From: an uncultured Myxococcales bacterium
Lineage (GTDB): Bacteria > Desulfobacterota > Binatia > UBA1149 > SPBQ01
Assembly: GCA_964544375.1 (NCBI GenBank)
Contig: CAZJCO010000001.1
Coordinates: 1-25,104, forward strand
DNA: 25,104 nt
Direction: 5' to 3'
The translations under genes were made by a program, and so were the position numbers. Under the pieces are notes generated by a model. The model did no database searches, was not told the origin of the DNA, and saw only the letters and a list, made by a program, of their open reading frames with translations. Positions 3,233-20,709 of the stretch are shown one piece after another; position 1 is the first letter of the stretch, and every line of letters begins with the position of its first letter.

Positions 3233-3968
<736 letters not shown>

Positions 3969-4014
3969 ACGCTTTATCGCAAAGCGTCGCCCATTGGTTA
4001 CGGGCAACGCTTGT

Positions 4015-4043
4015 TCTTTAACGACGCCGGCGTTGGCTGTCAA
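4015..4043 (-). promoter_or_regulatory. Possible sigma70 promoter for the ABC operon
   Basis: On the minus strand, TTGACA (4043-4038), 17 nt, then TAAAGA (4020-4015). The -35 is perfect but the -10 is weak. Confidence 0.3.
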
Positions 4044-4089
4044 CAAGTGCCGCGGCGGCCTGCGGAGCCGGTTTGCATTTGAGGCGGCG

Positions 4090-6723
4090 ATGCAAGAGCC
4101 TTCGCCCGTGAGCGCCGAAGAAAAGTCGGCTGTCTACCTGCTCGACGTCAGTTTTTTCACCTTCCGTGCCTACCATGCGCTGCCACCGCTCAATACATCT
4201 TCGGGGCTGGCGACGAATGCGGTCCACGGCGTGGAATCCATGCTCGAGCGTCTGATTCGGACCGAGGAGCCGGCCTATCTGGCGGCTTGCTTCGACAGTC
4301 CGGGCCCCTCGTTTCGCAACGAGGTCTATCCTTCGTACAAGGCCAACCGAGCCGAGCCGGATGAAGATCTGCGTGTGCAATTCCCCTATGTGCGCCGTCT
4401 GATCGAGGCCATGGCGATACGCTGCATCGAGCATCCGCGTTACGAGGCCGACGATCTGTTGGCAACCTTGGCCAAACGTTTCGCCGACCAAGGGCATCGC
4501 GTCGTTATCGTGACCGGCGACAAGGATCTGATGCAGTGCGTGGGCGAGCGCGTCAAGCTCTACGATCCGATGCGGAATCGAAGGATGGGTCCGAGCGAAG
4601 TGGTAGAAAAGTTCGGCGTCGGCCCCGAGGCCGTCACCGATGTTCAGGGGTTGATGGGTGACCCGACCGACAACATCCCTGGCGTGCGAGGCGTCGGCCC
4701 GAAGACGGCGGCAGCGCTGATCGGTCACTTTGGCTCGCTCGAAAGCACGCTCGAGCGAAGCGAAGAAATCGCCCTGCTCGAGCTGCGTGGCGCGGCCTCG
4801 GTTCGCAAGAAGATCGAAGCGGGAAGGGCCGAGGCTTTGCTGTCCAAAGATCTCGCGACGGTCCGTACCGACGCGCCGCTCGAGGTAGTTCTCGGCGACC
4901 TCGCCTTCGCGAGTCCGCATACGCCGGAGTTGCTGGCGCTGGCCGAAGAACTCGAGATGGAGCGTCTTGCGCGTAAACTGCGGCTACTGGTCGATGCGTC
5001 GGGGTCGACGCTTGTAGGCGCCTCGTCGAAGTCGGGCGAAGGGACGCAGGAGGACGGCACGCGCCTAAGCGACGATTGGGGCTCCCTCGAAGCGGGAAAA
5101 CTCCGCTTCGTGCTGACGCTAGACGAGGACGAGACCCCCGTATCGGCGCTTTCGGACGGGCGCCGTGGCTGCTTGCTCAAGGGGCGTGAGCGACTGTCGC
5201 ATGCCGTTGCTGCACTGCTTGAATCCGGCGCCTCGCTCTGCGGTTTCGACTTGAAGTTGTTGTGTCGTCTCTGTGGGCTCGAATCGATGCCGCGGGGCTT
5301 CGATCTCGGCGTGGCGTCCTACCTGTTCGATCCCTCGGTAGGCGACCACGGGCGTGCGGCTGTGATAGAGCGTTTCTTAGGAGAGGCCGCCGCGGACACG
5401 GCCGGTGGCAGCCCTGCAGGGATGGCGGCCGCGCTCGATCAGATCGACCGCCTGTTGCCCCGGCTACGCGAAGGGCTAGCGGAGAGGGAGCAAGGTGAAC
5501 TCTACGACACGCTCGAGCATCCGTTGGTCGGTATTCTGGCACAAATTGAGGCACGTGGCGTTCTGCTCGACGAGAAACTGTTAGCGAAGTTGGCCGAGGA
5601 ATTCGACGGTCGGATGAAAGCGCTGGTCTCCAAGATCTACGAAGCCGCCGGCTGCGAGTTCAATATTCTTTCGCCGGTGCAACTGCGAGAGATCTTGTTC
5701 GAACGCTTGCAGTTGCCGACCAAAGGAATCAAGAAGACCAAGAGCGGTCTTTCGACGGATAGCGACTCTTTGCAGGCGCTGTCGGCAAAGCACCCGCTAC
5801 CGGCCTTGGTGCTGGAGTATCGTGGTCTGGCGAAACTGAAGTCCACCTATCTCGATGCCTTGCCCCGCGTTGCCGACGCCGAGGGGCGGATTCACACCAG
5901 TCTCAATCAGACGGTGACCGCCACCGGCCGCTTGAGTTCGAGCGAGCCGAACCTTCAGAATATCCCTATTCGGACGGAGGACGGCGCCAAGATCCGGCGC
6001 GCCTTTGTCGCGCCTCGAGGGCACGTGTTGCTGTCGGCGGACTACAATCAAATCGAGCTACGCGTGTTGGCCCACCTGGCGCAGGACGAGGCTCTGATCG
6101 CCGCTTTTCGCAAGGGGCTCGACATCCATGCGGCGACCGCGAGTGAAGTGTTCGGGGTCAGCCTGGAAGAGGTGACCACTGCCATGCGGCGCGCCTCGAA
6201 GGTGATCAATTACGGGATCATCTACGGTATGGGGGCGACACGCATGTCGCGCGAACTCGGAATTCCGCGGTCGGAAGCGGCCGACTACATCGAGCGCTAC
6301 TTCGCCCGCTATTCGGGTGTTCGCCTTTTTTACGCCCACATGCTTGCCGGCGCCCGGCGCACGGGCTACGTTTCCACCCTGTTGGGACGCCGGCGCTATC
6401 TACCGGATATCGAAAGCGAAAACGGCCGCAAGCGACAGGCCACCGAGCGGGTCGCGACGAACACGCCGATCCAAGGAAGCGCGGCCGACATCATCAAACT
6501 GGCGATGATCCGGCTCGACTCGCGACTTCGCCGCAGGGGCGCCGCAGCGCGGATGGTGCTGCAAATTCACGACGAGCTGCTCCTCGAGGTGCCGAAGAAA
6601 GAAGTCGACGGGGTCGACGACGACGTGCGAGATGCTATGGAAGGCGCCGCATCGCTCGCCGTGCCTCTGCTGGTCGACATCGGACACGGGCGGAACTGGG
6701 CGGTAGCCCACCGGGTAGGCTAG
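4090..6723 (+). CDS. polA: DNA polymerase I
   Basis: 5'-3' exonuclease motifs (YLLD...FRAYHA, EADD, GDKD, GDPTDNIPGVRGVG) and polymerase motifs (TGRLSSSEPNLQNIP, SADYNQIELR, KVINYGIIYG, QIHDEL). Start at ATG 4090 after GAGG. Confidence 0.98.
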   Translation: MQEPSPVSAEEKSAVYLLDVSFFTFRAYHALPPLNTSSGLATNAVHGVESMLERLIRTEEPAYLAACFDSPGPSFRNEVYPSYKANRAEPDEDLRVQFPYVRRLIEAMAIRCIEHPRYEADDLLATLAKRFADQGHRVVIVTGDKDLMQCVGERVKLYDPMRNRRMGPSEVVEKFGVGPEAVTDVQGLMGDPTDNIPGVRGVGPKTAAALIGHFGSLESTLERSEEIALLELRGAASVRKKIEAGRAEALLSKDLATVRTDAPLEVVLGDLAFASPHTPELLALAEELEMERLARKLRLLVDASGSTLVGASSKSGEGTQEDGTRLSDDWGSLEAGKLRFVLTLDEDETPVSALSDGRRGCLLKGRERLSHAVAALLESGASLCGFDLKLLCRLCGLESMPRGFDLGVASYLFDPSVGDHGRAAVIERFLGEAAADTAGGSPAGMAAALDQIDRLLPRLREGLAEREQGELYDTLEHPLVGILAQIEARGVLLDEKLLAKLAEEFDGRMKALVSKIYEAAGCEFNILSPVQLREILFERLQLPTKGIKKTKSGLSTDSDSLQALSAKHPLPALVLEYRGLAKLKSTYLDALPRVADAEGRIHTSLNQTVTATGRLSSSEPNLQNIPIRTEDGAKIRRAFVAPRGHVLLSADYNQIELRVLAHLAQDEALIAAFRKGLDIHAATASEVFGVSLEEVTTAMRRASKVINYGIIYGMGATRMSRELGIPRSEAADYIERYFARYSGVRLFYAHMLAGARRTGYVSTLLGRRRYLPDIESENGRKRQATERVATNTPIQGSAADIIKLAMIRLDSRLRRRGAAARMVLQIHDELLLEVPKKEVDGVDDDVRDAMEGAASLAVPLLVDIGHGRNWAVAHRVG

Positions 6724-6796: not shown

Positions 6797-7366
6797 GTGG
6801 AGCTTAGCGACCCCGAGCTCGTCGAACGCGGCAGGTCCGGCGATCGGAGAGCGCTGCAGATCCTGGTTGAACGCTACCAGCGTAGGGTCCTCGGCGTCGT
6901 CGTCGGGATGGTGCGGAATCCCGAAGACGCGCGAGAAATCGTCCAGGAAGCTTTTGTCCGTGCGTTTCGTGGTCTGGAGCGGTTCAAAGGGGATTCCTCA
7001 TTTTACACCTGGCTCTATCGTATCGCCGTCAATCTCGCCATCGATGCTCAACGAAAGGACGGTAAACGTACGCACGTCGAATTCGATGAGTCGCAACCGC
7101 CGGCCGATGCCCCGTTGGCAATGGGCGGCAGAACGAAAGGTGCGGATCCGTACGAGGCGGTCCGCAACCGGGAGTTGGGAGAAAAGATTTTCCGCGCAAT
7201 TGACGGTTTGACGCCTGATCATCGGGCGGTCATACTGCTGCGGGAAATCGAAGGTTTGACGTACGAAGAGATCAGTCAGACGCTGGGTTGCTCCATGGGG
7301 ACCGTGATGAGTCGGCTTCATTACGCGCGCAAGAAGCTCCAGGACAAACTACAAGAGTTGCTGTGA
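6797..7366 (+). CDS. ECF RNA polymerase sigma factor (RpoE/SigW-like)
   Basis: Region 2 (DAREIVQEAFVRAF...FYTWLYRIAVN) and region 4 (LREIEGLTYEEISQTLGCSMGTVMSRLHYARKKL). GTG start with GGAG upstream. Confidence 0.95.
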   Translation: MELSDPELVERGRSGDRRALQILVERYQRRVLGVVVGMVRNPEDAREIVQEAFVRAFRGLERFKGDSSFYTWLYRIAVNLAIDAQRKDGKRTHVEFDESQPPADAPLAMGGRTKGADPYEAVRNRELGEKIFRAIDGLTPDHRAVILLREIEGLTYEEISQTLGCSMGTVMSRLHYARKKLQDKLQELL

Positions 7367-7375
7367 GGTGATGAG

Positions 7376-7960
7376 GTGACGCGTATTCCCGATTGTCGCG
7401 AGTTCGAGTCGAAACTGGACTCCTATCTAGACGCCGAACTGCCGCACGATGAGATGTCGGCGTCGGCGGCGCACGTACGGGGCTGTGCCAAGTGTGATGC
7501 GATCGTCACGCGATATCAGGAAACCAGGGCGTTACTGACAACGGCTGTAGCGGAAAGCGCTGCAGCCGTTGACGTTTCTGGGCTGTGGCAAAACATCGAC
7601 CGCTCGCTGGAACCGCTGGGTTCGCCTCTACGCAGACGTTGGACGAATTGGCTTGGTCTGCTTGTGGGTGACGGATCGGGTCTGTCGTCGTGGCGGCTCG
7701 ATTGGCGCATGGGCACGGCAGCGGCGTTTGCCGCGGCCGCGGCCGTGGTGGTCGTCGGATTGGCCTGGCAGCTGCGCGGTCCGGGTCCGATTTCCTCCGG
7801 TCGTGTTGCGACGGCGCCGGCGGTACAGGTTGATGCTGTCGAGGTTGCGGCAGGTCATACGGTGACGACCTGGACGCGGCCTCGGACACATACCCGCGTG
7901 ATTTGGGTATCCGACTCCAACGCTGGATTTGGCTTTACCAATGTCAGCGACGGCCGCTAG
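7376..7960 (+). CDS. Zinc-binding (ZAS, zf-HC2) transmembrane anti-sigma factor
   Basis: C...HVRGCAKC (HxxxCxxC), one TM segment (AAAFAAAAAVVVVGLAW), short extracytoplasmic tail; lies directly after the ECF gene. Confidence 0.85.
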   Translation: MTRIPDCREFESKLDSYLDAELPHDEMSASAAHVRGCAKCDAIVTRYQETRALLTTAVAESAAAVDVSGLWQNIDRSLEPLGSPLRRRWTNWLGLLVGDGSGLSSWRLDWRMGTAAAFAAAAAVVVVGLAWQLRGPGPISSGRVATAPAVQVDAVEVAAGHTVTTWTRPRTHTRVIWVSDSNAGFGFTNVSDGR

Positions 7961-7966
7961 CGAGCC

Positions 7967-8446
7967 ATGCTAAAACGTCTGACCACGCTCCTGATACTAT
8001 TGTCCACGATCCTTGCCCCGCTCGTCGCTCTCGCCGGATCTCCGATCATTCAAATCTCGGCGGTTCTCGCTTCCCACGATAAGAAACAGTTCGACCCACG
8101 TCTTCGCGACTTGCGTTCGGATTTACGCGCGCTGCCGTTCAAGGGTTATCAGCTCTACGGTATTCATTCGTGCCGGCTGGAAAGTGGCGATCAGTGCGGC
8201 ATGGATCTTCCCGGCGGAGACTATCTGCACGTGATGGCGGTCGAGCAGACCGACCGTTATCTGAAGATGCGGCTGTTGGTCAACCGAAACAATCGTCCCG
8301 TATTGGTTACCGACATTACGCTGAATCGGGACGCCAACGTGATCATCAAAGGCCCAAGGTCGCAGCAAGGCGCGATCGTTCTCGGGATCCGTGCGCAACG
8401 CGGTCGCGCGGATACGCCCGCTGCCGTGGGTAAGGCCCGTCGCTGA
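7967..8446 (+). CDS. Hypothetical exported protein
   Basis: Signal-peptide-like N-terminus (MLKRLTTLLILLSTILAPLVALA), beta-rich mature part with two Cys, 6 nt after the anti-sigma stop. Confidence 0.75.
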   Translation: MLKRLTTLLILLSTILAPLVALAGSPIIQISAVLASHDKKQFDPRLRDLRSDLRALPFKGYQLYGIHSCRLESGDQCGMDLPGGDYLHVMAVEQTDRYLKMRLLVNRNNRPVLVTDITLNRDANVIIKGPRSQQGAIVLGIRAQRGRADTPAAVGKARR

Positions 8447-8754
8447 TGGCCGATTGGGGGTTCTCGGGTCTCTACAGCAGGGCCGAGGAGCAGGTCCGCG
8501 GACTCGTTGATGCCTTCCAACGGGAGAGCCGGGACGCCGGCATGTCGGCGTTGATCACGCCGGTCGATCCGTTCAACCGTGCGAGTTTCTTGACACCACT
8601 GGTCGCCGCCGTTGGCGTTGCCGGTGTACTCTTCCTCTCGAGCGTTGCTGCGGGTGCTTTGATAGCCGCGGCGGTGGCTTTGTTGGCAGTCTATTTTCTA
8701 TTGACGGAAGTCTTCGGTTACGAGATCGAACTGGCGATGCCGCCCGGCGCCTGA
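8446..8754 (+). CDS. Hypothetical small membrane protein
   Basis: ATG overlaps the upstream TGA; two hydrophobic helices in the C-terminal half. Confidence 0.68.
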   Translation: MADWGFSGLYSRAEEQVRGLVDAFQRESRDAGMSALITPVDPFNRASFLTPLVAAVGVAGVLFLSSVAAGALIAAAVALLAVYFLLTEVFGYEIELAMPPGA

Positions 8755-8773: not shown

Positions 8774-9934
8774 TCAGCTTTTCGTCGCATCCCTCAGAAT
8801 TGCGGCTACCTCGGCGCGCGTGAATTCGGGTGGCGGCAGTTGGCCCTGGCTGAGCATTTTGCGAACGCGGGTGCCGCTTAGGAAAACGTGCGCATCCTTG
8901 TCGTGCGGGCAGGTCTTGGTTGACGCCATGCCTTGGCAGAGCTTGCAGTAGAAGGTGTGCTCGTAGTTGATGCAGGTGATTCCGATCTCTCCCGGCGCGA
9001 ACTCCTTGAAGATCTCCTGCGCGTCGTAAGTGCCGTAGTAATTGCCTACTCCAGCGTGGTCGCGGCCGACGATGAAATGGGTGCAGCCGTAGTTCTGACG
9101 CATGAGCGCGTGGAGGATTGCTTCTCGAGGACCGGCGTAATGCATGTTCGCCGGCAGCACCGAGAGCAGGACGCGGTCGGCCGGATAGTAGTTCTCGAGT
9201 AGCACCTGATAGCAGCGCATGCGGACATCGGCCGGGATGTCGTCGCTCTTGGTCTCGCCTACCAGCGGGTGCAGTAGCAGACCGTCGACCATCTCGAGAG
9301 CGCACTTCTGAAGATACTCGTGCGCGCGATGAACCGGATTGCGCGTTTGGAAGGCGACGATCGTACGCCATCCGCGCTCGCGAAACGCCGCGCGCGTCTG
9401 TGCTGGTTCGAGTCGGTGCTCGGCAAACGGCAAGCCCGACGGATGCCTCAGCATGGTGATCCGTCCGGCCAGGTAGATATCGCCCTGGGCGTAGACCGCG
9501 GCGACTCCGGGATGGGCCTCATCCGTCGTACGGTAGACCTTTTCGGCTTCGACGCGTTTGTCCGGCTGGTAGCGGCTGCAGAGGTGAAGGATTGCAAGCA
9601 CGTCGCCGTTTTCGTCGGCGAGGGCGACGTCGTCTCCGTCCGTCAGGCGTTCGGCTTCCTCGCAGGTGACGGTGAGGGTGATCGGAATCGGCCACACCAG
9701 ACCGTTGGCCAAGCGCATGTCCTGCACGACCGACTCGTAGTCCTCACGACCCATGAAGCCGTCGAGCGGACTGAATCCGCCGATTGCCAGCATTTCCAGA
9801 TTGGCTCGTTTGCGCGCATCCAATACCAGGCGGGGTAGGTCGGCACTCTTGTCGTCCCAGGCTGCTCGCTCTTCGTCATCGGCCATCCGATGGACCAAAC
9901 TGCCACCATGTGGCGCGATTGCGTCTTCAGGCAT
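8774..9934 (-). CDS. sat: Sulfate adenylyltransferase (ATP sulfurylase, Sat type)
   Basis: [40 protein letters not shown] motifs. 386 aa, with no APS-kinase fusion. Confidence 0.97.
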
Positions 9935-10039: not shown

Positions 10040-11473
10040 TCAGTTGGGGTAGACGCCAAGGAGCGGCCAGTACAGCAACACGGTTGCGTTGAATGCCAAC
10101 CAGGCGAGAACCCCCATCAGCATGCCGGGAACGATGATGTCGCGCAGGCGCAGATAGCCCGAGGAATAGGCAATTGCGTTGGCCGGCGTTCCAATCGGAA
10201 AAGCGAACGCGAGACCGGCGGGGATTGCGACGGCCGGCGCTACGACCGAGAGTTGAATGCCGACTTCTCGCGCGAGACCAATTCCGACTGGCATCATCAG
10301 TGCCACCACCGCCGAATTGCTGATTGCCTCGGTCAGGATCCAGGAGGTAAGGGACAACGCCGCGCAGACCGTGGGCGGCGACACGGCCCAGAGGCCGATG
10401 GTCCGGTCTGCGAGCCATCCTGCCGCGCCGGAGACGTCGAGCGCCTTGCCCAAGCAGATGGCGCCTCCGTACATCAAGATGATTCCCCAGTTGACGTATT
10501 CCTCTACATCCCGCCATGCTACCAACCGCAGCGCGAATAGAACTACGACGGCGAGAATCGCAACGTTGGCCAGCCCTAGCCGATGGCCGAAAAACACCCA
10601 GGTGGCGACTGTACAGAGCATGATCAGGCCGATCGCCTTTTCTTCAATCGTAGCTCGACCGAGGGCGGCAACGCGTTGACTGAGTACTTCTTCGGCCTGG
10701 CTGACGCTGTCGATGTCGATCGGAAACCAGTGCGTGATGACGCCGTAGCCGACCAACAACATCGCGCCGACGACCGGCAGGGCGTGCAAGCTCCAAGAGA
10801 GAAAAGTAAAGGAAGACTCTCCCGTCACCTGCTCGAGGATGGCCAATGCGAGGGGCGCCCTTCCTCCGCCCAGCAGGGTCGCCACGCCGCCGATCGTCGA
10901 GCCCCAGGCCATGGCGACGAAGAGGGCCTTGCCGTAGGAGCTCCGCAGCTGCCGCAGGCCGAGTACGGTGGCAATCTCGGCGACGATCGGGAAGTTCATT
11001 GCTGCCACGGCGTGCTCTGACATCCAGAACGAAAGGAACGCATTGAGGAGGAAGATCGCCACCAGTAGGCGGCGCGGCGAGTGGCCGAACCTTCTCAAAA
11101 CCAGCAGGCTGAGGCGGGTAGACAGACCCGACTTCATCAGGCAAGCCGCCAGGATGAACGCTCCGAGAATGAAAAAGACGGCCGAATTGCCGAACAGGGC
11201 GTAGGCTTCTTCAGAGCCGAGAACTCCGGTCAACGGCAGTAGGGCAATTGCCAGGAGGCTCGTAATCATCAGCGGGAGGACGCTGAGGGCCCAGAAGACC
11301 ACGCAAAGCGCGAACACGGCGAGCGCTTGCTGCCCTTGGGCGGACAGTCCGGCCGGAGTGTCCGCGCTAGCGATCCACCAGTAGATTGCGACGCCCGCCA
11401 GTAGACGTAACAGACGGTTCGAGCGAGAAAGCAGCACCAGCCACAAAGGGCGCGTATCGACGACGACGTCCAC
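10040..11473 (-). CDS. DASS/SLC13 family anion:Na+ symporter, probably for sulfate or another sulfur oxyanion
   Basis: Highly hydrophobic, with STIGGVATLLGG, ISNSA and PIGTPANAIAY motifs. Start moved to GTG 11473, just after the radical SAM stop. Substrate inferred from adjacency to sat. Confidence 0.88.
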   Translation of the reverse strand: MDVVVDTRPLWLVLLSRSNRLLRLLAGVAIYWWIASADTPAGLSAQGQQALAVFALCVVFWALSVLPLMITSLLAIALLPLTGVLGSEEAYALFGNSAVFFILGAFILAACLMKSGLSTRLSLLVLRRFGHSPRRLLVAIFLLNAFLSFWMSEHAVAAMNFPIVAEIATVLGLRQLRSSYGKALFVAMAWGSTIGGVATLLGGGRAPLALAILEQVTGESSFTFLSWSLHALPVVGAMLLVGYGVITHWFPIDIDSVSQAEEVLSQRVAALGRATIEEKAIGLIMLCTVATWVFFGHRLGLANVAILAVVVLFALRLVAWRDVEEYVNWGIILMYGGAICLGKALDVSGAAGWLADRTIGLWAVSPPTVCAALSLTSWILTEAISNSAVVALMMPVGIGLAREVGIQLSVVAPAVAIPAGLAFAFPIGTPANAIAYSSGYLRLRDIIVPGMLMGVLAWLAFNATVLLYWPLLGVYPN

Positions 11474-11477
11474 TTGC

Positions 11478-12704
11478 CTACAGTCTCGATGCGTTGAAGG
11501 AGTCGCTGACGCGCTTGACGCGAAGGCGCCGTCGGAGTTTGGACAGACCGCGTACCGCTCGGCTGCCAATCCGCGAACGGTAGAAACTGCTGACGGCGAC
11601 ATCGATGCGGGCTTCGTCTCCTGCAAAAAAGCGAGCCTCGATCGGGGTGATTGCGTAACCGAGATCCCGCATGTGCTGAACGTTGATGCGCGCCGCACGA
11701 ACCCGCTCGTAAAGATGCGCATAGAGTGGGGTAACCTGCTCGGGATCCGGCGGCGCATGATTGCGGAGCGCGGTTTCTTCGAGAGGGCGGAACAACGACA
11801 GCACGGGGACTACGCCGGAAGAGGTAAGTTCGTCGATCCCGGCGAGGGTGGATTCGACTGGTTCCAGCCCGACGATGAGATCGCTCCAGACGGTGCCGCT
11901 CGGAAAGATGCGAGCGGCGTATTCGAGTGCACACAAGTAGCGTTCGCGACCGATGAGCTGGTTGCGACCGCGACAGATCGTGGCGAGAATTTCGGGATCG
12001 AAAATTTGCAGACTGTAGCTCAGGGCGTCGACACCGGATGCATAGCAGCGGTCGATCCAGCGGTCGTCGGCGGGCGGATGCACTTGAACGGCGACGAGGG
12101 TGTCGAAATGGCGTTTGACCGCTCGTACGTAGGGTTCGAGGAACGCAAAACCACCGTCCTCCGCTTCGAAGTGCCCGGTATTGAAATACACGAACTCGGC
12201 GGCGCCCTCGTCAAACGCCGCGCGTACGACTTCCAGGACCTCCTCGATGGGCCGCGGGGCGCGTACGACGCCGTCGGTCTGCGCGAGTGTGCAGAACTGG
12301 CAACCAAGGCCACGTGCGCTGAAGCCGCATGCCGAAGCGGGATCGATCGATAGGTAACCCGCGTGGACGGTGGCGACCTGCCACATCGGCGTACCCTCGG
12401 TGGTAGTGGCGCAATAGAAGCGGGGTGGGGCGATCAGGCTTACGGGCACTTGGGTGCCGTCTTCGCTGTTGCAAAGGAAAAAAGCGTCGTTTTCGCAGTC
12501 CAGCACGTACGGTGAGTCGGCGGCCATCGGGGTTGCGATCGGACACTCGGCGATAATGTCTTGAGGCAGAATGACTTCGAGACCGCGGCTAGCGAAATCG
12601 CGCGCAGCGGAAGCCGGGTTCAGTGTGGCCAGATCCGCCAGCGCGGGCGACAGTCGGATTCCCTTGACGGCGACATCGATCTTCAGCTCAACGGGGTTAC
12701 GCAA
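11478..12704 (-). CDS. Radical SAM protein with atypical CX8CX2C motif (MSMEG_0568/NitD-like)
   Basis: CGFSARGLGCQFC at 12329-12291; TIM-barrel motifs GVDALSYSLQIFD, SDLIVGLE and VVPVLSLFRP. Start set at TTG 12704, with GAGG upstream and overlapping the preceding stop. Confidence 0.86.
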   Translation of the reverse strand: MRNPVELKIDVAVKGIRLSPALADLATLNPASAARDFASRGLEVILPQDIIAECPIATPMAADSPYVLDCENDAFFLCNSEDGTQVPVSLIAPPRFYCATTTEGTPMWQVATVHAGYLSIDPASACGFSARGLGCQFCTLAQTDGVVRAPRPIEEVLEVVRAAFDEGAAEFVYFNTGHFEAEDGGFAFLEPYVRAVKRHFDTLVAVQVHPPADDRWIDRCYASGVDALSYSLQIFDPEILATICRGRNQLIGRERYLCALEYAARIFPSGTVWSDLIVGLEPVESTLAGIDELTSSGVVPVLSLFRPLEETALRNHAPPDPEQVTPLYAHLYERVRAARINVQHMRDLGYAITPIEARFFAGDEARIDVAVSSFYRSRIGSRAVRGLSKLRRRLRVKRVSDSFNASRL

Positions 12705-13206
12705 GGGGCGCCTCGTCAGCCGGCTCTGTCGGCCGTCGTTGCCATCCGAGCAGGACGCCAATCGCCCGGGCTGCGGCATCGCAGGCAGCGATTGCGTGGA
12801 GCAAGGTCGAAACCGGGGCGCCCGCGGCCGCGCCGTCGTCGCTCTGCGAGCGATGGCACTCGGAGCGGCCCGACGACGGTGCCTTGCTTGCCGTCACGCC
12901 GCCGAGCAGCTTGCAGCCGACGATGCGGTACCAGACGATCGGAGTTCTGTCGTCGGGCCCCCGAGGGCTCAAGCTCTCTCCGTCGGGTTCGCGATCGGCG
13001 AGGATCAGGCAGTCCGCCCGGCGATCCGGTTCCCGCGTGACCTGGACGCCGGTCGCGCGAAGATATCGCTCGAGTATGTCTAGAGCTTCGGTGTGTCCCT
13101 GTAGCTCAACGATGCTGGCGAGCAGTCGCTCCTGGCCGCTGCCGCCGACTTCGGGAATGACGATCTGACGAGCGTAGCGCTCGATATCGCGTTCGGATAG
13201 AGGCAC
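12697..13206 (-). CDS. Degenerate ThiF/MoeB (E1-like) protein: keeps the N-terminal RYxRQ but lacks the ATP-binding motifs
   Basis: ERYARQIVIPEVGGSGQERLLAS matches the MoeB N-terminus. GxGxxG is replaced by GHTEAL, and SNLxRQ and the CxxC pairs are missing. The C-terminal helix (AIAACDAAARAIGVLLG) is kept. Confidence 0.75.
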   Translation of the reverse strand: MPLSERDIERYARQIVIPEVGGSGQERLLASIVELQGHTEALDILERYLRATGVQVTREPDRRADCLILADREPDGESLSPRGPDDRTPIVWYRIVGCKLLGGVTASKAPSSGRSECHRSQSDDGAAAGAPVSTLLHAIAACDAAARAIGVLLGWQRRPTEPADEAPLA

Positions 13207-13454: not shown

Positions 13455-14423
13455 TCATGCTCCTCGAAACTGGGGTCGCGGCAGATCCTTCCAGCCAGCC
13501 CAAAGATTGGTCGACAGGTAGCGGTCGCCGAAATCACAGAAGATCGTGACGACGCAACCGCGTTCTAGTGTCGATGCCACTTCGAGAGCGCCCACCATGG
13601 CGGCGCCGCTCGACTGCCCAACGAGAATGCCGTCTTCGCGGGCCAGCCGGTAGACCATGTCGTAGGCGGCTTCGGTCGCCACCCCGATTTTGTGGTCGAG
13701 TTCCTCTTCGTGATAGATGCCGGGGACGATCGAGCTCTCCATATGTTTGAGGCCCTCGATGCCGTGGAATGCGTCGTCTGGTTCGACCGCCACGACCTGG
13801 ACGTGCCGGCTCTGTGATTTCAAGAAACGTCCGGTGCCCATCACCGTGCCGCCGGTTCCGATGCTGGCGACGAAGTGCGTTACGGCCCCCTTGGTCTGCT
13901 GCCAAATCTCCGGTCCGGTAGTCAGAAAGTGCGCCTCCGGATTGGCCTCGTTGAAGTACTGATCGGGCTTGAAGTAGCTATCGCGGTCGGCCTCGTAAAT
14001 CTCGCGGCAGCGCAGAAGCGCACCGTCGGATCCCTCGAGGCCGCTGGAATAGATTGCCTCGGCGCCGTAGGCGGCCAGGATGCGTTTGCGTTCGGTCGAG
14101 ACGTTGTCCGGCATGACCAGGCGAACGGGATACCCGAAGGCCGCGCCGATCATCGCCAGAGCAATGCCCGTGTTGCCCGACGTCGAGTCGAGAATCGTCT
14201 TTCCCGGCGTCAACTCTCCGGACTCGATGCCGCGACGGATCATGTTCCACGCGGGACGGTCCTTGACCGAACCGGCGGGATTGAAGCCTTCGAGCTTGGC
14301 GAACACCTCAACGTCAGGAGCAATCTCACGAGAGACGTTGCGGATGCGTACCAGCGGTGTCTTGCCGACGATGTCGAGAACACGCGGCACGCGAGTGCCG
14401 GCGATGGGGCTGGTCTCGCTCAT
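13455..14423 (-). CDS. cysM: PLP-dependent cysteine synthase family protein (CysM-like, probably carrier-thiocarboxylate dependent)
   Basis: VGKTPLV, KLEGFNPAGSVKDR (PLP lysine), STSGNTG, SIGTGGT and GQSSGA motifs. Follows the sulfur carrier gene. Confidence 0.9.
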   Translation of the reverse strand: MSETSPIAGTRVPRVLDIVGKTPLVRIRNVSREIAPDVEVFAKLEGFNPAGSVKDRPAWNMIRRGIESGELTPGKTILDSTSGNTGIALAMIGAAFGYPVRLVMPDNVSTERKRILAAYGAEAIYSSGLEGSDGALLRCREIYEADRDSYFKPDQYFNEANPEAHFLTTGPEIWQQTKGAVTHFVASIGTGGTVMGTGRFLKSQSRHVQVVAVEPDDAFHGIEGLKHMESSIVPGIYHEEELDHKIGVATEAAYDMVYRLAREDGILVGQSSGAAMVGALEVASTLERGCVVTIFCDFGDRYLSTNLWAGWKDLPRPQFRGA

Positions 14424-14491: not shown

Positions 14492-14773
14492 CTAGCTGCG
14501 GCCGCCAGCGATGGCGGGAACGATCGACACCTCGTCTCCCTCTTTGACTGCGGAATCGAGATTCTCGAGAAAACGAATATCGTCACCGTTCAGATAGAGA
14601 TTGACGAAGCGCCGGACCGCACCGTCGGCGTCGCAGATTCTTTCTTTGATGCCCGGGTGCTTTTGTTCTAGGTCGTCGAGAATCGCGCCGATCGAGTTGC
14701 CGTCGACAGACACCGACTCTTGACCGCCGGTGAACTTCCTCAGCGGAGTGGGGATACGAACTTGAACTGCCAT
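14492..14773 (-). CDS. MoaD/ThiS/CysO family ubiquitin-like sulfur carrier with C-terminal GG-RS
   Basis: MAVQVRIPTPLRKFTGG...RRFVNLYLNGDDIRFL...VSIVPAIAGGRS*. AGGAGG RBS. Confidence 0.95.
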   Translation of the reverse strand: MAVQVRIPTPLRKFTGGQESVSVDGNSIGAILDDLEQKHPGIKERICDADGAVRRFVNLYLNGDDIRFLENLDSAVKEGDEVSIVPAIAGGRS

Positions 14774-14829: not shown

Positions 14830-16092
14830 TCATGCCGACGCGGCTTTCGCCGCCGCTTGATCGCTAAGTTTCCGATAGAGTTCGTCGAAATCATCGAGTT
14901 TTGCGGCAATTCGTCGGGGCTCGGCGACCGAGTCCATCACTGCCTCGAGGGTCTTGTATCCGTTCCCCGTAACACTGATTACGATCGATTCGTCCGCTGG
15001 AATCCTCCCCTGTTCGATCAGTTTCTTAGCGACCGCCACGGTGGTACCGCCCGCCGGCTCCGTGAAGATTCCTTCGGTTTCGGCAAGCAGCTTGATCCCG
15101 GCGACGATCTCTTCGTCGGTAGCCGCTTCTCCCCAGCCGCCACTGTTGCGGACCGCCTTGAGCACGTAGTAACCGTCGGCCGGGTTGCCGATGGCGATCG
15201 ACTTCGCGATCGTGTTCGGCTTTACCGGTTCGATCAAGTCGCTCTCGCGATGCAACGCGTGAACGACCGGTGCGCATCCGGCCGCCTGAGCCGTGTAGAT
15301 TTTCCACGGGCTGTCCTTTACCAGACCGACCGCGACCAGTTCTTCGAAGGCCTTGGCGACCTTGGGCAGGATCGTGCCGCCGGCGGTAGGAACCACGATG
15401 TGACGTGGAAGCTTCCACCCCAACTGCTCGGCGACTTCGAAGCCGTAGGTCTTGGCGCCTTCGGTGTAGAACGGCCGCAGATTGATGTTGGCGAATGCCC
15501 ACTGGTACTTGTCCGCGATCTCCGTGCACAGGCGGTTGACGTCGTCGTAATTGCCCGAGATCGCGACGGTCGTTGGCTGATAGACGGCCGAACCGATGAC
15601 TTTACCGCGCTCGAGATTGTCCGGAATGAAAATGAAACAGCGAAGACCAGCGCGCGCCGCATGGGCGGACACCGAGTTGGCGAGATTGCCCGTCGAGGCG
15701 CAGGAAACCGTGTCGAAACCGAACTCGATTGCTTTGGTAATTGCTACCGATACGACACGATCCTTGTAAGAAAAGGTCGGGTGGTTGACCGAATCGTCCT
15801 TGACGTAGAGCTCCTTGACCCCCAGCGCTTCTGCCAGCCGGTCCGCACGAACCAGCGGGGTGCAGCCGGAATGCAGACCGATCTTCGGCTCGCTCTCAAT
15901 CGGGAGCAACTCCCGATAACGCCATAGATTGCGCGCGCGTCCTTCGATTTTTCGCCTTGTAACGGTCGACGCGATGGCTTCGTAGTCGTAACAGACCTCC
16001 AGCGGTCCGAAGCAGAATTCGCAGACGTGATGAGGGCCCAGTTCGTAAGCCTCACCGCACTCGCGGCACTTCAATCCGGTGATCAGTGACAT
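14830..16092 (-). CDS. thrC: Threonine synthase-like PLP enzyme (fold type II) with N-terminal Zn ribbon
   Basis: CRECG...CEFC, LWRYRELLP, PTFSYKDR (PLP lysine), CASTGNLA, EGAKT, TGNGYK. Family is secure; the actual reaction is uncertain (see findings). Confidence 0.9.
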   Translation of the reverse strand: MSLITGLKCRECGEAYELGPHHVCEFCFGPLEVCYDYEAIASTVTRRKIEGRARNLWRYRELLPIESEPKIGLHSGCTPLVRADRLAEALGVKELYVKDDSVNHPTFSYKDRVVSVAITKAIEFGFDTVSCASTGNLANSVSAHAARAGLRCFIFIPDNLERGKVIGSAVYQPTTVAISGNYDDVNRLCTEIADKYQWAFANINLRPFYTEGAKTYGFEVAEQLGWKLPRHIVVPTAGGTILPKVAKAFEELVAVGLVKDSPWKIYTAQAAGCAPVVHALHRESDLIEPVKPNTIAKSIAIGNPADGYYVLKAVRNSGGWGEAATDEEIVAGIKLLAETEGIFTEPAGGTTVAVAKKLIEQGRIPADESIVISVTGNGYKTLEAVMDSVAEPRRIAAKLDDFDELYRKLSDQAAAKAASA

Positions 16093-16826
16093 GCTTCAGG
16101 CCTCCTTGCTTGCTCGCGATGCAGACGGCTGCAGCAGCGGCACCGCGGATCTCGAGGAAAATCGACCAGTCTCCAGCGCTGGCCGCGAGCTTGGTAGATC
16201 GTCAGGACACCCGGGCGCCATGCTGGATCTCCGGTCAGCGCTCGCACCGCCGAAAGCGCTTGTACGAAGCCGATGACTCCGGCAACCGGGGAGAGTATGC
16301 CGAGGCGGTCGCATCCTTCTGGAAGTTCGCTGCCGGCCTCACGCGAAGGAAAAGCACACTCGAGACAGGCCGAGCGTCCGGGGTCGATGCCCATGGCCTG
16401 TCCTGCGGTGCGCACCACGCCTCCGTAGGACATCGGCCGACCGACTTCTGTAGCGGTTGCGTTGATGAGAAACTTACTTGCCGGGTCGTCCGTGGCGTCG
16501 ATGATGAAGTCGTGGCTGCGCATCAGTTCGGCAGCGTTGCTTTGTTCGAAACGTCCGACCAGCGGCTGCAGCCGGCAGCTTCGGAACATCCCGGCCAGGG
16601 TCGCCGCCGCGGCCTCCGCCTTGGGGCGGCCGATGGCGTCGTCGTCGAACAGGATTTGTCGCTGCAGGTTCGACAACTCGACCACGTCCGCGTCGAGCAG
16701 GGTGACATGCCCCACGCCGCCGCGCGCCAGTCCGAGCGCGGCGGGACATCCGAGCGCACCGCAACCTACGACGAGTACCCGCGCCTGGGCCAGGATCTCG
16801 GCACTGTTGTCGGTCTCTGCGTACAA
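16083..16826 (-). CDS. ThiF/MoeB/HesA family E1-like adenylyltransferase lacking the N-terminal RYxRQ helix
   Basis: VLVVGCGALG, LLDADVVELSNLQRQ, GRPKA, IIDATDD, CLEC, EGCDRLG, RDPRCRCC. The track's ATG 16880 lies inside the riboswitch, so the likely start is in-frame TTG 16826 preceded by AAGAGG. Confidence 0.86.
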   Translation of the reverse strand: MYAETDNSAEILAQARVLVVGCGALGCPAALGLARGGVGHVTLLDADVVELSNLQRQILFDDDAIGRPKAEAAAATLAGMFRSCRLQPLVGRFEQSNAAELMRSHDFIIDATDDPASKFLINATATEVGRPMSYGGVVRTAGQAMGIDPGRSACLECAFPSREAGSELPEGCDRLGILSPVAGVIGFVQALSAVRALTGDPAWRPGVLTIYQARGQRWRLVDFPRDPRCRCCSRLHREQARRPEACH

Positions 16827-16859
16827 AAAAACCTCTTCCGAGAATGGCAAGGAAGAGGC
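16825..16859 (-). terminator. Intrinsic terminator of the riboswitch expression platform
   Basis: Minus strand GCCUCUUCC-uugccauucuc-GGAAGAGGU (9-bp stem), ending in a run of 7 U. Confidence 0.9.
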
Positions 16860-16873
16860 TGCTCGCTTTCCTC

Positions 16874-16990
16874 GCCTCATCTCTCGCCCTTTCGTCTCGG
16901 GCAGTAGGATTTAGCACCAGCACCCACCTAGGGGCGGGCCGGTTGCTGTGGCTTCGCAGGGCCTATTCCCTCCACCACTCTCAATAAGGC
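16874..16990 (-). ncRNA. SAM-I (S-box) riboswitch aptamer
   Basis: Minus strand GCCUUAUUGAGAGUGGUGGAGGGAAUAGGCCCUGCGAAGCCACAGCAACC...GGUGCUAAAUCC...GAUGAGGC. P1 GCCUUAU/AUGAGGC, P2 GUGGU/GCCAC with kink-turn GA pairs, P3 GCAACC/GGUGC, P4 GCCC/GGGC. The pseudoknot shows a compensatory UAG/CUA in place of the usual UGG/CCA. Confidence 0.93.
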
Positions 16991-18607: not shown

Positions 18608-19564
18608 ATGACAGCGTCTCGCCTTCATCTCGTCGTCGGCAAGGGCGGCGTCGGCAAATCGACGGTTACCGCGGCGATGGCCCTGGCGCTGGCGCAGCAG
18701 GGGCGACGCGTGTTGGCACTCGAACTCGATGGTCCCGGCGGCTTGGCACGCGCTTTCGGGGTCACGCCCGATCGACCGGCCAGTTTTCTCCGTGTGCGCC
18801 ACCGGCTCTCGGTCGGCTTCGTCGACGGCCAATCCGCCCTGGCCGAGTACCTGGGGCTCGTCATTCCCATCCGCCGTCTGCTCGATACCGTCTTCGGTAG
18901 TCGAATCTACAAGAACTTTGTCGCTGCCGCACCCGGCCTCAAAGAGCTGATGACGATGGGGAAAGTTTGGTACGAGTTCCAGCGTTGCGGAGACGATGGT
19001 CGCCCGGTCTGGGACGCGATTGTCGTCGACGCGGGAGCGTCGGGGCACAGTTTGCAATATCTGCAGATGCCGGCGGCGGCTGCGAGAACCTTCCGCAGCG
19101 GTCTGGTTCACCGCGAATCCCAGCGCGTAGCAGCGCTGCTCGGTGACGCGGCAACGACCCGTGTCCACGTTGTCACTGTGGCCGAGGACATGCCGCTGGC
19201 CGAAGCGCTCCAGATCCTCGCGCGATTGCGCGGAGAGCTGCGGCTTCCGGTCGGACGACTGTTCGTGAATCGCTGGCGCGCCGAGGCCCCGGAGGGCGCT
19301 CGGGCCGTGCTCGAGCGCCTGAGTACGGCGGCGCCCGCGGGCGCGGATGGCGCGTCGCTGACGATTCTCGAAGGCGTTCGGAGCGCGGGCTATCGCTGCG
19401 TGCAATGGGCCGAACTGCAGCGGCGCAGCCTTGATCGCTTCCAGGCACGAATGGGTCTGCAGCCGATTCTGCTGCCGCTGCTTGCGGTCGAAGAGTTCGG
19501 CACGGACGAGGTCGAGAGGTTGGCGAGTTTGGTCGCGCACGGGCCACGAGAGGTCGTCTTGTGA
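18608..19564 (+). CDS. ArsA/Get3 family ATPase, subunit A (Rv3679/BagA-like)
   Basis: VGKGGVGKST deviant Walker A, AAAPGLKEL, VVDAGASGH, VAEDMP, FVNR. Confidence 0.88.
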   Translation: MTASRLHLVVGKGGVGKSTVTAAMALALAQQGRRVLALELDGPGGLARAFGVTPDRPASFLRVRHRLSVGFVDGQSALAEYLGLVIPIRRLLDTVFGSRIYKNFVAAAPGLKELMTMGKVWYEFQRCGDDGRPVWDAIVVDAGASGHSLQYLQMPAAAARTFRSGLVHRESQRVAALLGDAATTRVHVVTVAEDMPLAEALQILARLRGELRLPVGRLFVNRWRAEAPEGARAVLERLSTAAPAGADGASLTILEGVRSAGYRCVQWAELQRRSLDRFQARMGLQPILLPLLAVEEFGTDEVERLASLVAHGPREVVL

Positions 19565-20709
19565 GTCTGGCGCCATTGATCGAAGGTCACCGGGTCCTGG
19601 TTTGCGTCGGCAGCGGAGGGGTCGGCAAGACCACCACGGCTGCCGCTCTGGCGCTGCAGGGGGCACTCATGGGGCGGCGAGCGATGGTGCTCACGATCGA
19701 TCCCGCCAGACGTCTGGCGCAATCGCTCGGCCTAGAGGCGCTGCGCAGTGGTGGGCAGCCGATCGACGAGGAGATCTTCGCCGACGCCGGTTTGCAACCG
19801 CAGGGGAGTCTCTGCGCCGGAATGCTCGAACAGGAGAGCGCCTGGGACCAGTTCATCGCGCGCCATGCCCCCAACGAGGAACTGCGCGAGACCATTCTCA
19901 GCAATGAGTTCTACCGCCATTTGTCGCGCTCGTTTGCGGGCTCGGCGGAATACATGGCGATCGAAGAACTGGGGCGCATCGAGGAAAGCGGCGAATATGA
20001 CCTGATCGTTCTCGATACACCGCCGACCGGGCATGCGCTGGACTTCCTCGAAGCGCCCAAGCGCCTGGACGACTTTCTCGACCGATCTGTGGTCGGTTGG
20101 TTCGTGCGCCCCTATGCTTCGGCCGGCTGGAGCGCGTGGAAGACGGCGAGCCGGAGCGTTCGGTTTCTCATGCAGCGAATCGAGGACGCGACCGGCAGCC
20201 AGTCACTGCGGCAGATCTCGGAGTTCTTCGTCGCGATGGAGAGCCTGTTCGATGGGATCAACGAACGAGGGCGCAAGGTTCGCTCCCTCTTGACGAGCGA
20301 GCGAACCGCGTTTGTGCTGGTCGCAGGTCCGCAAGAGCAGGTCCTCGGAGAGAGCGAGCTGCTGACGAGCAAGATGCGTGAACTCGCGATGCCGTTGAGG
20401 GGTGTGGTGATGAACCGTGTTTATCCGATGCCCGCCGGCGGCGAGTCCGAACCGACGGAGGCCGACGTTCGACGCGCCTTGCGTGCGGCCCATGATGGTG
20501 CGATCGCGTCGGAAATCGAGGACTGGCTCGTCGCCCGCTATCTAGAGGGCTGCACGATCGCGCGCTCGGAGGAGATTCGTCGGGAGTCTTTCGAGGCTGG
20601 GCTTGACGACGACGTGCGTTGCGTCGCGGTTCCGGAGTTCGAAGCAGACGTGCACGACCTCGTTTCGTTGGCCCGGGTGGGCCATGTGCTGGTAACCACG
20701 ACGGACTGA
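19561..20709 (+). CDS. ArsA/Get3 family ATPase, subunit B (Rv3680/BagB-like)
   Basis: VGSGGVGKTT, TIDPARRLA, GSAEYMA, VLDTPPTGHALDFLEAP, VVMNR. GTG overlaps the upstream TGA. Confidence 0.9.
   Translation: MSLAPLIEGHRVLVCVGSGGVGKTTTAAALALQGALMGRRAMVLTIDPARRLAQSLGLEALRSGGQPIDEEIFADAGLQPQGSLCAGMLEQESAWDQFIARHAPNEELRETILSNEFYRHLSRSFAGSAEYMAIEELGRIEESGEYDLIVLDTPPTGHALDFLEAPKRLDDFLDRSVVGWFVRPYASAGWSAWKTASRSVRFLMQRIEDATGSQSLRQISEFFVAMESLFDGINERGRKVRSLLTSERTAFVLVAGPQEQVLGESELLTSKMRELAMPLRGVVMNRVYPMPAGGESEPTEADVRRALRAAHDGAIASEIEDWLVARYLEGCTIARSEEIRRESFEAGLDDDVRCVAVPEFEADVHDLVSLARVGHVLVTTTD

Follow-up and report, generated by a model that had tools for sequence, protein, structure and literature searches.

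Two radical S-adenosylmethionine (SAM) families defined by sequence models stand closest to the protein that is the subject of this work. The protein is encoded by a gene, here called X, that lies in a sulfur-assimilation operon on a 25,104-nucleotide stretch of DNA (the window; contig CAZJCO010000001.1, assembly GCA_964544375.1) from an uncultured bacterium of the Binatia, and X is followed there by the gene of a DASS/SLC13-family anion permease. NCBIfam NF045502 ("variant_rSAM"), with which X shares its family score and a long-spacer cluster motif, is a sequence model only, and its description, as we found it, mentions no pairing or fusion with DASS transporters, no conserved tail, and no members without the cluster. 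TIGR04043, the family of MSMEG_0568 and of the NitD proteins of Nit1C clusters, resembles X in having a homologous barrel, an N-terminal domain, and a CX8CX2C-type motif. The two differ at their ends and in their surroundings: TIGR04043-like relatives close with a Cys-rich segment (GCxxCxxC or LGPxCIPCQNN), whereas X closes with LRRxLRV..SDSFDSSxL, and NitD genes sit in nitrilase clusters, a gene context entirely different from that of X. The CX8CX2C variant itself has already been catalogued for the Megacluster-4-6 groups of RadicalSAM.org, which are uncharacterized (PMC9477430).

Over the barrel, the best structural matches of X are LipA/LIAS, HydE, ThiH, BioB, and NifB. The sulfur-inserting enzymes LipA, BioB, MiaB, and RimO have a second set of cysteines, for an auxiliary cluster from which the sulfur is drawn, and X is without such a set. 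A likeness of another kind, one of function and not of fold, can be drawn to the cytoplasmic modules carried by several importers, if X has the role that we propose for it below. The DASS-fold transporter Pho90 carries an N-terminal regulatory SPX domain, and the STAS domain of SulP sulfate transporters and the NIL (C2) domain of MetN in the importer MetNI are ligand-binding cytoplasmic modules that tie uptake to metabolic state; a NIL-domain protein is also encoded in the operon of X. The folds of all of these modules are unrelated to that of X. To our knowledge, there is no earlier case of a radical SAM fold serving as a transporter subunit or as a sensor of SAM or of Fe-S status, and in full-text literature searches we came across no account of X being paired with or fused to DASS, of the tail, or of members lacking the cluster. 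What was known before is the family model and the motif variant; the recruitment of a radical SAM fold as a transporter module would be the new part.

Results

X is fused to a DASS permease or encoded next to one

X is a physical part of the transporter protein in Zetaproteobacteria. Fusion of X to the N terminus of DASS is the standard form in this class, with an 881-residue example among the representative proteins and at least 120 distinct clusters (90% identity) of fusion proteins, ∼875 to 895 residues in length. The carriers include Mariprofundus ferrooxydans, M. ferrinatatus, M. micogutta, M. erugo, and Ghiorsea bivora, with isolates of M. ferrooxydans, M. ferrinatatus, and G. bivora among them, and the proteins are annotated simply as DASS (family sodium-coupled anion) symporters. 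The X domain of the Mariprofundus fusion scored 177 bits against NF045502. Of the 120 fusions, 119 retain the cluster motif, which has the form CX9CX2C in 118. An AlphaFold2 model of one 881-residue fusion (P0169) had a predicted local distance difference test score (pLDDT) of 85.7 and a predicted template modeling score (pTM) of 0.77, and its DASS half is a structural homologue of Pho90.

The genes around the fusion were read from the M. ferrinatatus chromosome and from Ghiorsea contigs. The first half of the operon consists of a SAM riboswitch followed by genes for a ThrC-like protein, ThiS, NIL, CysM, and ThiF; the second half encodes a sulfite reductase::TusA fusion, X::DASS, CysH (a thioredoxin-type adenosine 5'-phosphosulfate [APS] reductase), DsrE2 plus TusA in Ghiorsea, CysD, and CysN. 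The gene for X::DASS thus sits between the sulfite reductase::TusA gene and cysH. Because CysH, the sulfite reductase::TusA fusion, and CysDN coexist with X in these genomes, X fills no missing step of the pathway. Moreover, since complete operons hold ATP sulfurylase, APS reductase, and sulfite reductase, the imported substrate is most likely sulfate.

We also observed that the protein encoded directly upstream of X::DASS (L062, 7626-9971; L063, 7662-9995) is an assimilatory sulfite reductase with a C-terminal TusA domain and that the DsrE2 and TusA genes of Ghiorsea lie between cysH and cysD. This arrangement suggests a persulfide relay from the sulfite reductase to the ThiF/ThiS thiocarboxylation step.

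Outside of the fusions, X and DASS are in most loci encoded by adjoining genes. One genome per species was scanned, which gave 53 loci, nearly all of them from Binatia metagenome-assembled genomes (MAGs), with an Armatimonadota MAG and unclassified bacteria making up the rest. In 49 of the 53 genome loci, the next gene downstream of X encodes DASS, and this is true as well of three metagenome loci (L057, L058, and L061). The recurrent gene order in the 53 loci is E1, ThrC-like, ThiS, CysM, NIL, (E1b), X, DASS, (Usp), (Sat). An E1-family gene is found directly upstream of X in most loci, and a same-strand gene for ATP sulfurylase (Sat) is found near X in 26 of the 53. One further protein is a JAB::X fusion, and its gene adjoins a ThiS gene. 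The initial annotation had linked X to sulfur mobilization, and this link holds: when we asked whether homologues occur without an association with sulfur genes, we found them tightly tied to sulfur-assimilation genes in the 53 genome loci and in the metagenome loci, across several phyla.

In the window, X is read from a TTG start codon (12704-12702), with GAGG 7 nt upstream of it, to a TAG stop codon (11480-11478). A longer alternative beginning at ATG 12779 was judged to be unlikely because the TTG position is where both the homologues and the NF045502 profile start. The junctions to both neighbors are as initially annotated: the TAA stop codon of the upstream pseudo-E1 gene (12699-12697) creates an overlap of 8 nt with X, and the GTG start codon of the DASS gene (11473) lies 4 nt past the X stop codon. 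With only 4 nt between them, we take X and DASS to be translationally coupled.

The DASS proteins partnered with X begin with a conserved N terminus, MDVVVDTRPLW. At residues ∼152 to 160 of the window protein, the "SNT" motif that Na+-coupled DASS transporters have in hairpin 1 (ISNTATAAM in VcINDY and NaCT) is replaced by MSEHAVAAM, in which the Glu and His of SEH are invariant among X-partnered DASS proteins; SNS is found as the second motif. These proteins may therefore differ in coupling ion or in substrate site from the characterized Na+/carboxylate members of the family, and because the first SNT motif is replaced by SEH, the label "sodium-coupled" is possibly wrong. In 21 of the 53 genome loci, the DASS and Sat genes are separated by a gene for a small Usp-like protein of ∼155 to 170 residues that matches PF00582 weakly (for instance, L009, 12667-13173; L044, 12797-13315; and, among the metagenome loci, L061, 12560-13027). 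The window has no such gene, and the gap between DASS and Sat there is 105 nt. An apparent DASS::Usp fusion in L027 was not relied on; the C terminus of DASS transporters is expected to be periplasmic, which makes a frameshift the likely cause.

Family membership, cluster motif, and fold of X

X passed the gathering score of Pfam Radical_SAM (PF04055; 36.8 bits against 29.5) and scored 194.9 bits against NF045502 (cut-off, 125), covering profile positions 2 to 353 of 357. The second-best family match was TIGR04043, at 134.2 bits (E = 5e-39; cut-off, 303.7). By its profile scores, X is thus a member of NF045502, a family that is named but uncharacterized. It is a relative and not a member of the MSMEG_0568/NitD family, because 134 bits lies far under the TIGR04043 cut-off. 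These results agree with the initial annotation, which had described X as an atypical, uncharacterized radical SAM protein, had pointed to a resemblance to MSMEG_0568/NitD (here found to be real, though below threshold), and had asked for a comparison of TIGR04043 with other radical SAM profiles. That annotation had also seen no Nit1C gene nearby; likewise, we found no gene for a nitrilase, GNAT, AIRS-like protein, flavin monooxygenase, or other Nit1C protein among the window open reading frames (ORFs) scanned, and Nit1C genes were absent among the scanned neighbors in related loci. Among 1.84 billion representative proteins, X has 1850 relatives at E values up to 0.001, 297 of them below 1e-30, and the more distant relatives include fusions to ATP-grasp domains.

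The cluster motif of X is C126-x8-C135-x2-C138, so that the first spacer has eight residues, as annotated initially, in place of the three of CX3CX2C. Its codons translate as C-GFSARGLG-C-QF-C, and the aromatic residue before the last cluster cysteine, F137, is the Phe of a CxFC element. All three cysteines are invariant in an alignment of 28 homologues with 50 to 68% identity (alignment A1). Of the 52 ORFs that clustered as homologues in the 53 genome loci, 48 have the CX8CX2C spacing; among the four that do not, two are cut at a contig edge. Also conserved in A1 are a GxIxGxxE-like motif (LIVGLEPVES) and a ribose-type motif (GVDALSYS). A fourth cysteine, C244, is invariant, and many polar residues of the pocket are strongly conserved, several of them (Arg, Asp, and Glu) without any variation. 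The conservation of the relevant motifs makes it very probable that X, in the lineage of the window, has kept the ability to bind a [4Fe-4S] cluster and SAM. A second set of three or more conserved cysteines, as for an auxiliary Fe-S cluster, was not found in A1, where C244 is the only extra one.

The domain layout of X comprises an N-terminal beta-rich domain (approximately residues 1 to 120), a partial TIM barrel, and a C-terminal tail. In an AlphaFold2 model of free X (pLDDT, 83.7; pTM, 0.84), the predicted fold is a partial (beta/alpha)6 TIM barrel of the radical SAM type. Foldseek searches with this model gave a probability of 1.0 to LipA/LIAS, TsrM, HydE, ThiH, BioB, NifB, PylB, and others. 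The best matches had E values of ∼1e-7, TM scores of ∼0.45, and 14 to 18% identity over ∼230 to 270 aligned columns of the barrel. Matches at this TM score are generic, so function cannot be transferred from them. A search of the sequences in the PDB with the family profile returned nothing at E values up to 1.

The C-terminal tail outlasts the cluster cysteines

The most conserved element across the family is the C-terminal tail, LRRxLRV(K/R)xVSDS(F/Y)xSxxL. In an alignment of diverse tail-bearing members (alignment A2), tail residues R391, R392, L394, R395, S402, and L408 are invariant, and this includes the cluster-less relatives. The model of free X leaves the tail disordered (pLDDT, <50), whereas the equivalent helix in the natural fusion has a pLDDT of 66 to 78. 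The fusions keep LRRxLRV and have, in place of the acidic end, a linker of variable sequence leading into the first transmembrane helix of DASS. From this conservation and these models, we propose that the tail is a docking element on DASS. We also considered the C-terminal carboxylate of the tail as a substrate of E1 or ATP-grasp enzymes, in the manner of a ThiS- or LysW-like carrier, and rejected this as the main reading because the C terminus is not free in the natural fusions.

The cluster itself is dispensable in some lineages. In A2, one or all of the cluster cysteines are lost in P0134, P0135, P0141, P0153, P0212, P0221, and P0246, and likewise in the group formed by P0198, P0209, P0215, P0239, and P0254. 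The same loss is seen at two genome loci, one from Binatia (L031) and one from Armatimonadota (L044). The pairing of X with DASS outlives the loss of the Fe-S ligands, since several cluster-less loci keep DASS: this is the case for L031, L044, and the metagenome loci of P0134 (L058), P0221 (L057), and P0212 (L061). The order of genes is Sat, X, DASS, Usp in L044; Rrf2, Sat, X, DASS in L058; Rrf2, ThiS, JAB, ThiF, X, DASS in L057; and ThrC-like, ThiS::NIL, CysM, JAB, ThiF, X, DASS, Usp, AprA-like in L061, the last gene encoding an AprA-like APS reductase.

Among the loci tested, 7 of 10 with the cluster and 0 of 4 without it had a SAM riboswitch, and two of the latter four carry an Rrf2 regulator instead; this weak correlation, from a small sample of phylogenetically non-independent loci, lends some support to the sensor role proposed for X below. 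The proteins P0198 and P0215 (L056 and L059) are more degenerate and have lost the GxIxGxxE-like motif as well. Their genes are flanked by a murC/mpl-like ligase gene on one side and an Rv1681-like canonical radical SAM gene on the other, DASS is absent from the neighborhood, and the proteins keep the tail as LRRKLR(I/V)K.(V/I)SDSYESAGL.

The operon of the window

The minus-strand operon of the window runs in the order SAM riboswitch, ThiF-type E1, ThrC-like protein, ThiS/SAMP-type carrier, CysM, NIL, pseudo-E1, X, DASS, and Sat (Table 1). The SAM-I riboswitch at its head confirms the regulatory context assumed in the initial annotation, namely repression by SAM, and riboswitches of the same class head homologous operons in L001, L021, L030, L045, L062, and L063. 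The gene set matches protein-thiocarboxylate-dependent cysteine synthesis of the CysO/CysM type together with what would be a MetM/MetO homocysteine route. No APS reductase or sulfite reductase was found among the scanned ORFs of the window operon.

Table 1. Features of the sulfur operon and of gene X in the window
Feature	Position	Strand	Basis
SAM-I riboswitch, operon leader	16874..16990	-	RF00162, 70.9 bits
Intact ThiF/MoeB-type E1 (E1a)	16083..16880	-	PF00899, 199.1 bits
Threonine-synthase-like (ThrC-like) protein, candidate MetM-type homocysteine synthase	14830..16092	-	ThrC models
ThiS/MoaD-type sulfur carrier, ends ...AIAGG-RS	14492..14773	-	NF041918, 66.6 bits; PF02597
CysM-type cysteine synthase	13455..14423	-	TIGR01136, 351.7 bits (cut-off, 344.15); TIGR01138, 382.3 bits (below cut-off, 394.2)
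Stand-alone NIL-domain protein, 79 residues	13214..13453	-	PF09383, 54.7 bits; synteny conserved
Pseudo-E1 (E1b), degenerate ThiF/MoeB paralogue	12697..13206	-	only residues 2-55 match MoeB models
X, 408-residue radical-SAM-fold protein	11478..12704	-	ORF, family profile scores, sequence
Cluster motif of X, C126-x8-C135-x2-C138 (CGFSARGLGCQFC)	12291..12329	-	read directly from codons 12329-12291
C-terminal tail of X (LSKLRRRLRVKRVSDSFNASRL), residues 387-408	11481..11546	-	family alignment A2
DASS/SLC13-family anion permease, probable sulfate importer	10040..11473	-	TIGR00785, 253.7 bits; PF00939
ATP sulfurylase (Sat)	8774..9934	-	NF003166, 571.7 bits

The real start of E1a is probably downstream of 16880. 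From its context, the ThrC-like protein is probably a homocysteine synthase of the MetM type, with O-phosphohomoserine and the thiocarboxylate of the carrier as its substrates, and its annotation as ThrC is likely a misannotation. The MetM/MetO homocysteine route has been described recently in Streptomyces (10.1101/2024.10.14.618325, citing Hasebe et al. 2024). The ThrC-like protein has an N-terminal Cys-rich, zinc-ribbon-like segment (CRECGE...CEFC) with a weak match to the Pfam family NinF, and this match recurs in the Zetaproteobacteria orthologues.

Most carriers in related loci extend 1 to 5 residues past GG (R, L, A, C, TRSLS, and others), and those of Zetaproteobacteria end in GGC. Because of residues beyond GG, such a carrier would need a JAMM/Mec-type protease, for which no gene is present in the window operon; a JAB gene is present in L030, L033, L057, and L061. 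The NIL gene is conserved between the CysM gene and the E1b and X genes, and in L061 (7288-7806) NIL is fused to the C terminus of ThiS, after GG. This fusion suggests that the NIL domain acts on or with the carrier; it is perhaps a methionine-responsive element.

The pseudo-E1 keeps the N-terminal LSxxxIERYxRQ helix (as LSxxQIERYSRQ) and part of the C-terminal region. According to an E1a/E1b alignment across loci, it is without the GxGxxG and DxDxVxxSNLxRQ nucleotide-binding motifs, which are intact in the versions from L021, L030, and L033. The pseudo-E1 gene is conserved directly upstream of X across Binatia in progressively degenerate form, and the same slot is taken by the sulfite reductase::TusA gene in Zetaproteobacteria. 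The protein may serve the intact E1 as a partner without catalytic activity of its own, or it may act as an adaptor.

The genes that flank the operon are housekeeping genes: polA, an extracytoplasmic function (ECF) sigma/anti-sigma pair, bamD, an ABC transporter, and proline genes. On the plus strand (6797-8754 and 3943-6723) are the genes for the ECF sigma factor, a zf-HC2 anti-sigma factor, two small conserved proteins without a Pfam match, and polA, a block that is syntenic with the sulfur operon in many Binatia loci (ORF clusters 11, 22, 16, 33, and 15). Two adjoining genes for ArsA/Get3-like P-loop ATPases of 318 and 382 residues (18608-20709, plus strand) are kept in some related loci (clusters 37 and 38).

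Discussion

We tentatively favor a reading in which X docks on the sulfate permease from the cytoplasmic side, as a module that binds a [4Fe-4S] cluster and SAM, and there would most likely couple uptake to SAM or Fe-S status. X would be made in step with the permease through translational coupling and would probably dock on the cytoplasmic N-terminal face of DASS by means of its basic-then-acidic tail. The ligand or cluster state of X would then gate the import of sulfate. The ligand sensed would be SAM, the end product of the pathway, possibly along with Fe-S or redox status, and gating would serve as a fast post-translational brake on top of the slower control by the SAM riboswitch. It is important to note that X as a partner of DASS is much firmer than X as a gate of transport, and that docking through the tail, binding of SAM, and gating are each put forward here as what the genomic and modeling results would best fit. 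The initial annotation had considered a SAM-consuming enzyme under SAM repression to be odd. The repression part of that remark stands, with the riboswitch in place; the oddness disappears if SAM is the sensed ligand of X and not its co-substrate.

Several observations weigh against the sensor module. X has no adjoining DASS in 4 of the 53 genome loci (L028, L034, L037, and L029), and the tail is not purely DASS-specific, since P0198 and P0215 keep it in a context without DASS. The E1-like genes upstream of X and the JAB::X fusion hint at a link to the carrier system that gating does not need. The strong conservation of the three cysteines, C244, and the polar pocket residues in both Binatia and Zetaproteobacteria would suit an enzyme as well as a sensor. 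Finally, the case for docking draws on genomics and on one pTM value.

The last but one of these points leads to the main rival, a reading that is close to the initial annotation and is possible, if on the unlikely side: that X is an active radical SAM enzyme tied to sulfur assimilation, with, for example, the emerging anion, the ThiS-type carrier or E1 complex, or the transporter as its substrate, and that the cluster-less relatives are derived pseudoenzymes. The invariance of CX8CX2C and of the SAM motifs within the Binatia clade and the retention of the cluster motif in nearly all of the Zetaproteobacteria fusions are what an enzyme would lead one to expect. A defined pocket is suggested by C244 together with the Arg, Asp, and Glu residues that do not vary, the E1-family gene upstream of X and the JAB::X fusion encoded beside ThiS also speak for this reading, and the nearest solved structures are sulfur-inserting or cofactor-building (LipA, HydE, ThiH, and BioB). 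Those structural matches are, on the other hand, generic, and an indispensable radical reaction is hard to reconcile with relatives that have repeatedly lost the cluster ligands in the same gene context. Complete operons leave no pathway step over for an enzyme to carry out, and fusion to a permease or 1:1 translational coupling would be unusual for a soluble biosynthetic enzyme. The absence of auxiliary-cluster cysteines makes sulfur insertion of the LipA/BioB/MiaB type unlikely, and on this ground we ruled out X as a sulfur donor of the LipA/BioB type. Of the activities that had been suggested for X at the outset, C-S or S-O cleavage of an imported compound is not supported, given that the substrate is most likely sulfate, that the pathway is complete, and that the cluster cysteines have been lost repeatedly. 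Modification of the carrier fares no better, as the constant partner of X is DASS, both in the genome loci and in the natural fusions. Chemistry and transport could in principle be joined in a chemically coupled importer, with radical or cluster chemistry performed by X-DASS on the emerging anion or on a sulfur anion other than sulfate, an arrangement that we regard as quite improbable. If it were true, uptake and first transformation would be carried out by one machine, in the manner of group translocation, and the cluster-less lineages would have reverted to plain transport.

The opposite extreme, in which X would serve the permease in structure or assembly only, as a relic of a radical SAM enzyme that needs no ligand and whose cluster just stabilizes the fold, is unlikely. 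It would account for the cluster-less members that retain both the DASS pairing and the tail, and for a tail that is more conserved across the family than the catalytic motifs are. Against it, the three cysteines, the SAM motifs, and the pocket residues are under strong purifying selection in two distant clades, which exceeds what fold stability would need, and we know of no requirement of DASS transporters for accessory subunits. The gene context decides two further readings. The window operon, with a transporter and an ATP sulfurylase and without an APS or sulfite reductase, could be taken to mean that X replaces one of these reductase steps. This is very improbable and was rejected: X::DASS stands between sulfite reductase::TusA and cysH within one operon in Mariprofundus and Ghiorsea, L061 has an AprA-like gene, and the cluster-less X proteins would be incapable of redox chemistry. 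That X is an enzyme of the NitD/MSMEG_0568 type in a Nit1C-like nitrile or cyanide pathway is barely conceivable. The long-spacer motif is shared and the TIGR04043 match has a low E value; the score far under the cut-off, together with the absence of Nit1C genes among the scanned ORFs of the window and the scanned neighbors in related loci, led us to rule it out.

Entries of ∼880 residues labeled "DASS family sodium-coupled anion symporter" carry an unannotated predicted Fe-S domain. The fused form occurs in cultured strains of Mariprofundus and Ghiorsea, which makes the hypothesis of a sensor module directly testable. The proposed module is also relevant to the way in which bacteria that form cysteine and homocysteine via protein thiocarboxylates, a route recognized only recently, adjust their uptake of sulfate to demand. 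Radical SAM proteins are treated as enzymes nearly by definition, and a member of this fold that is fused to or docked on a transporter as a module would, if true, widen that view.

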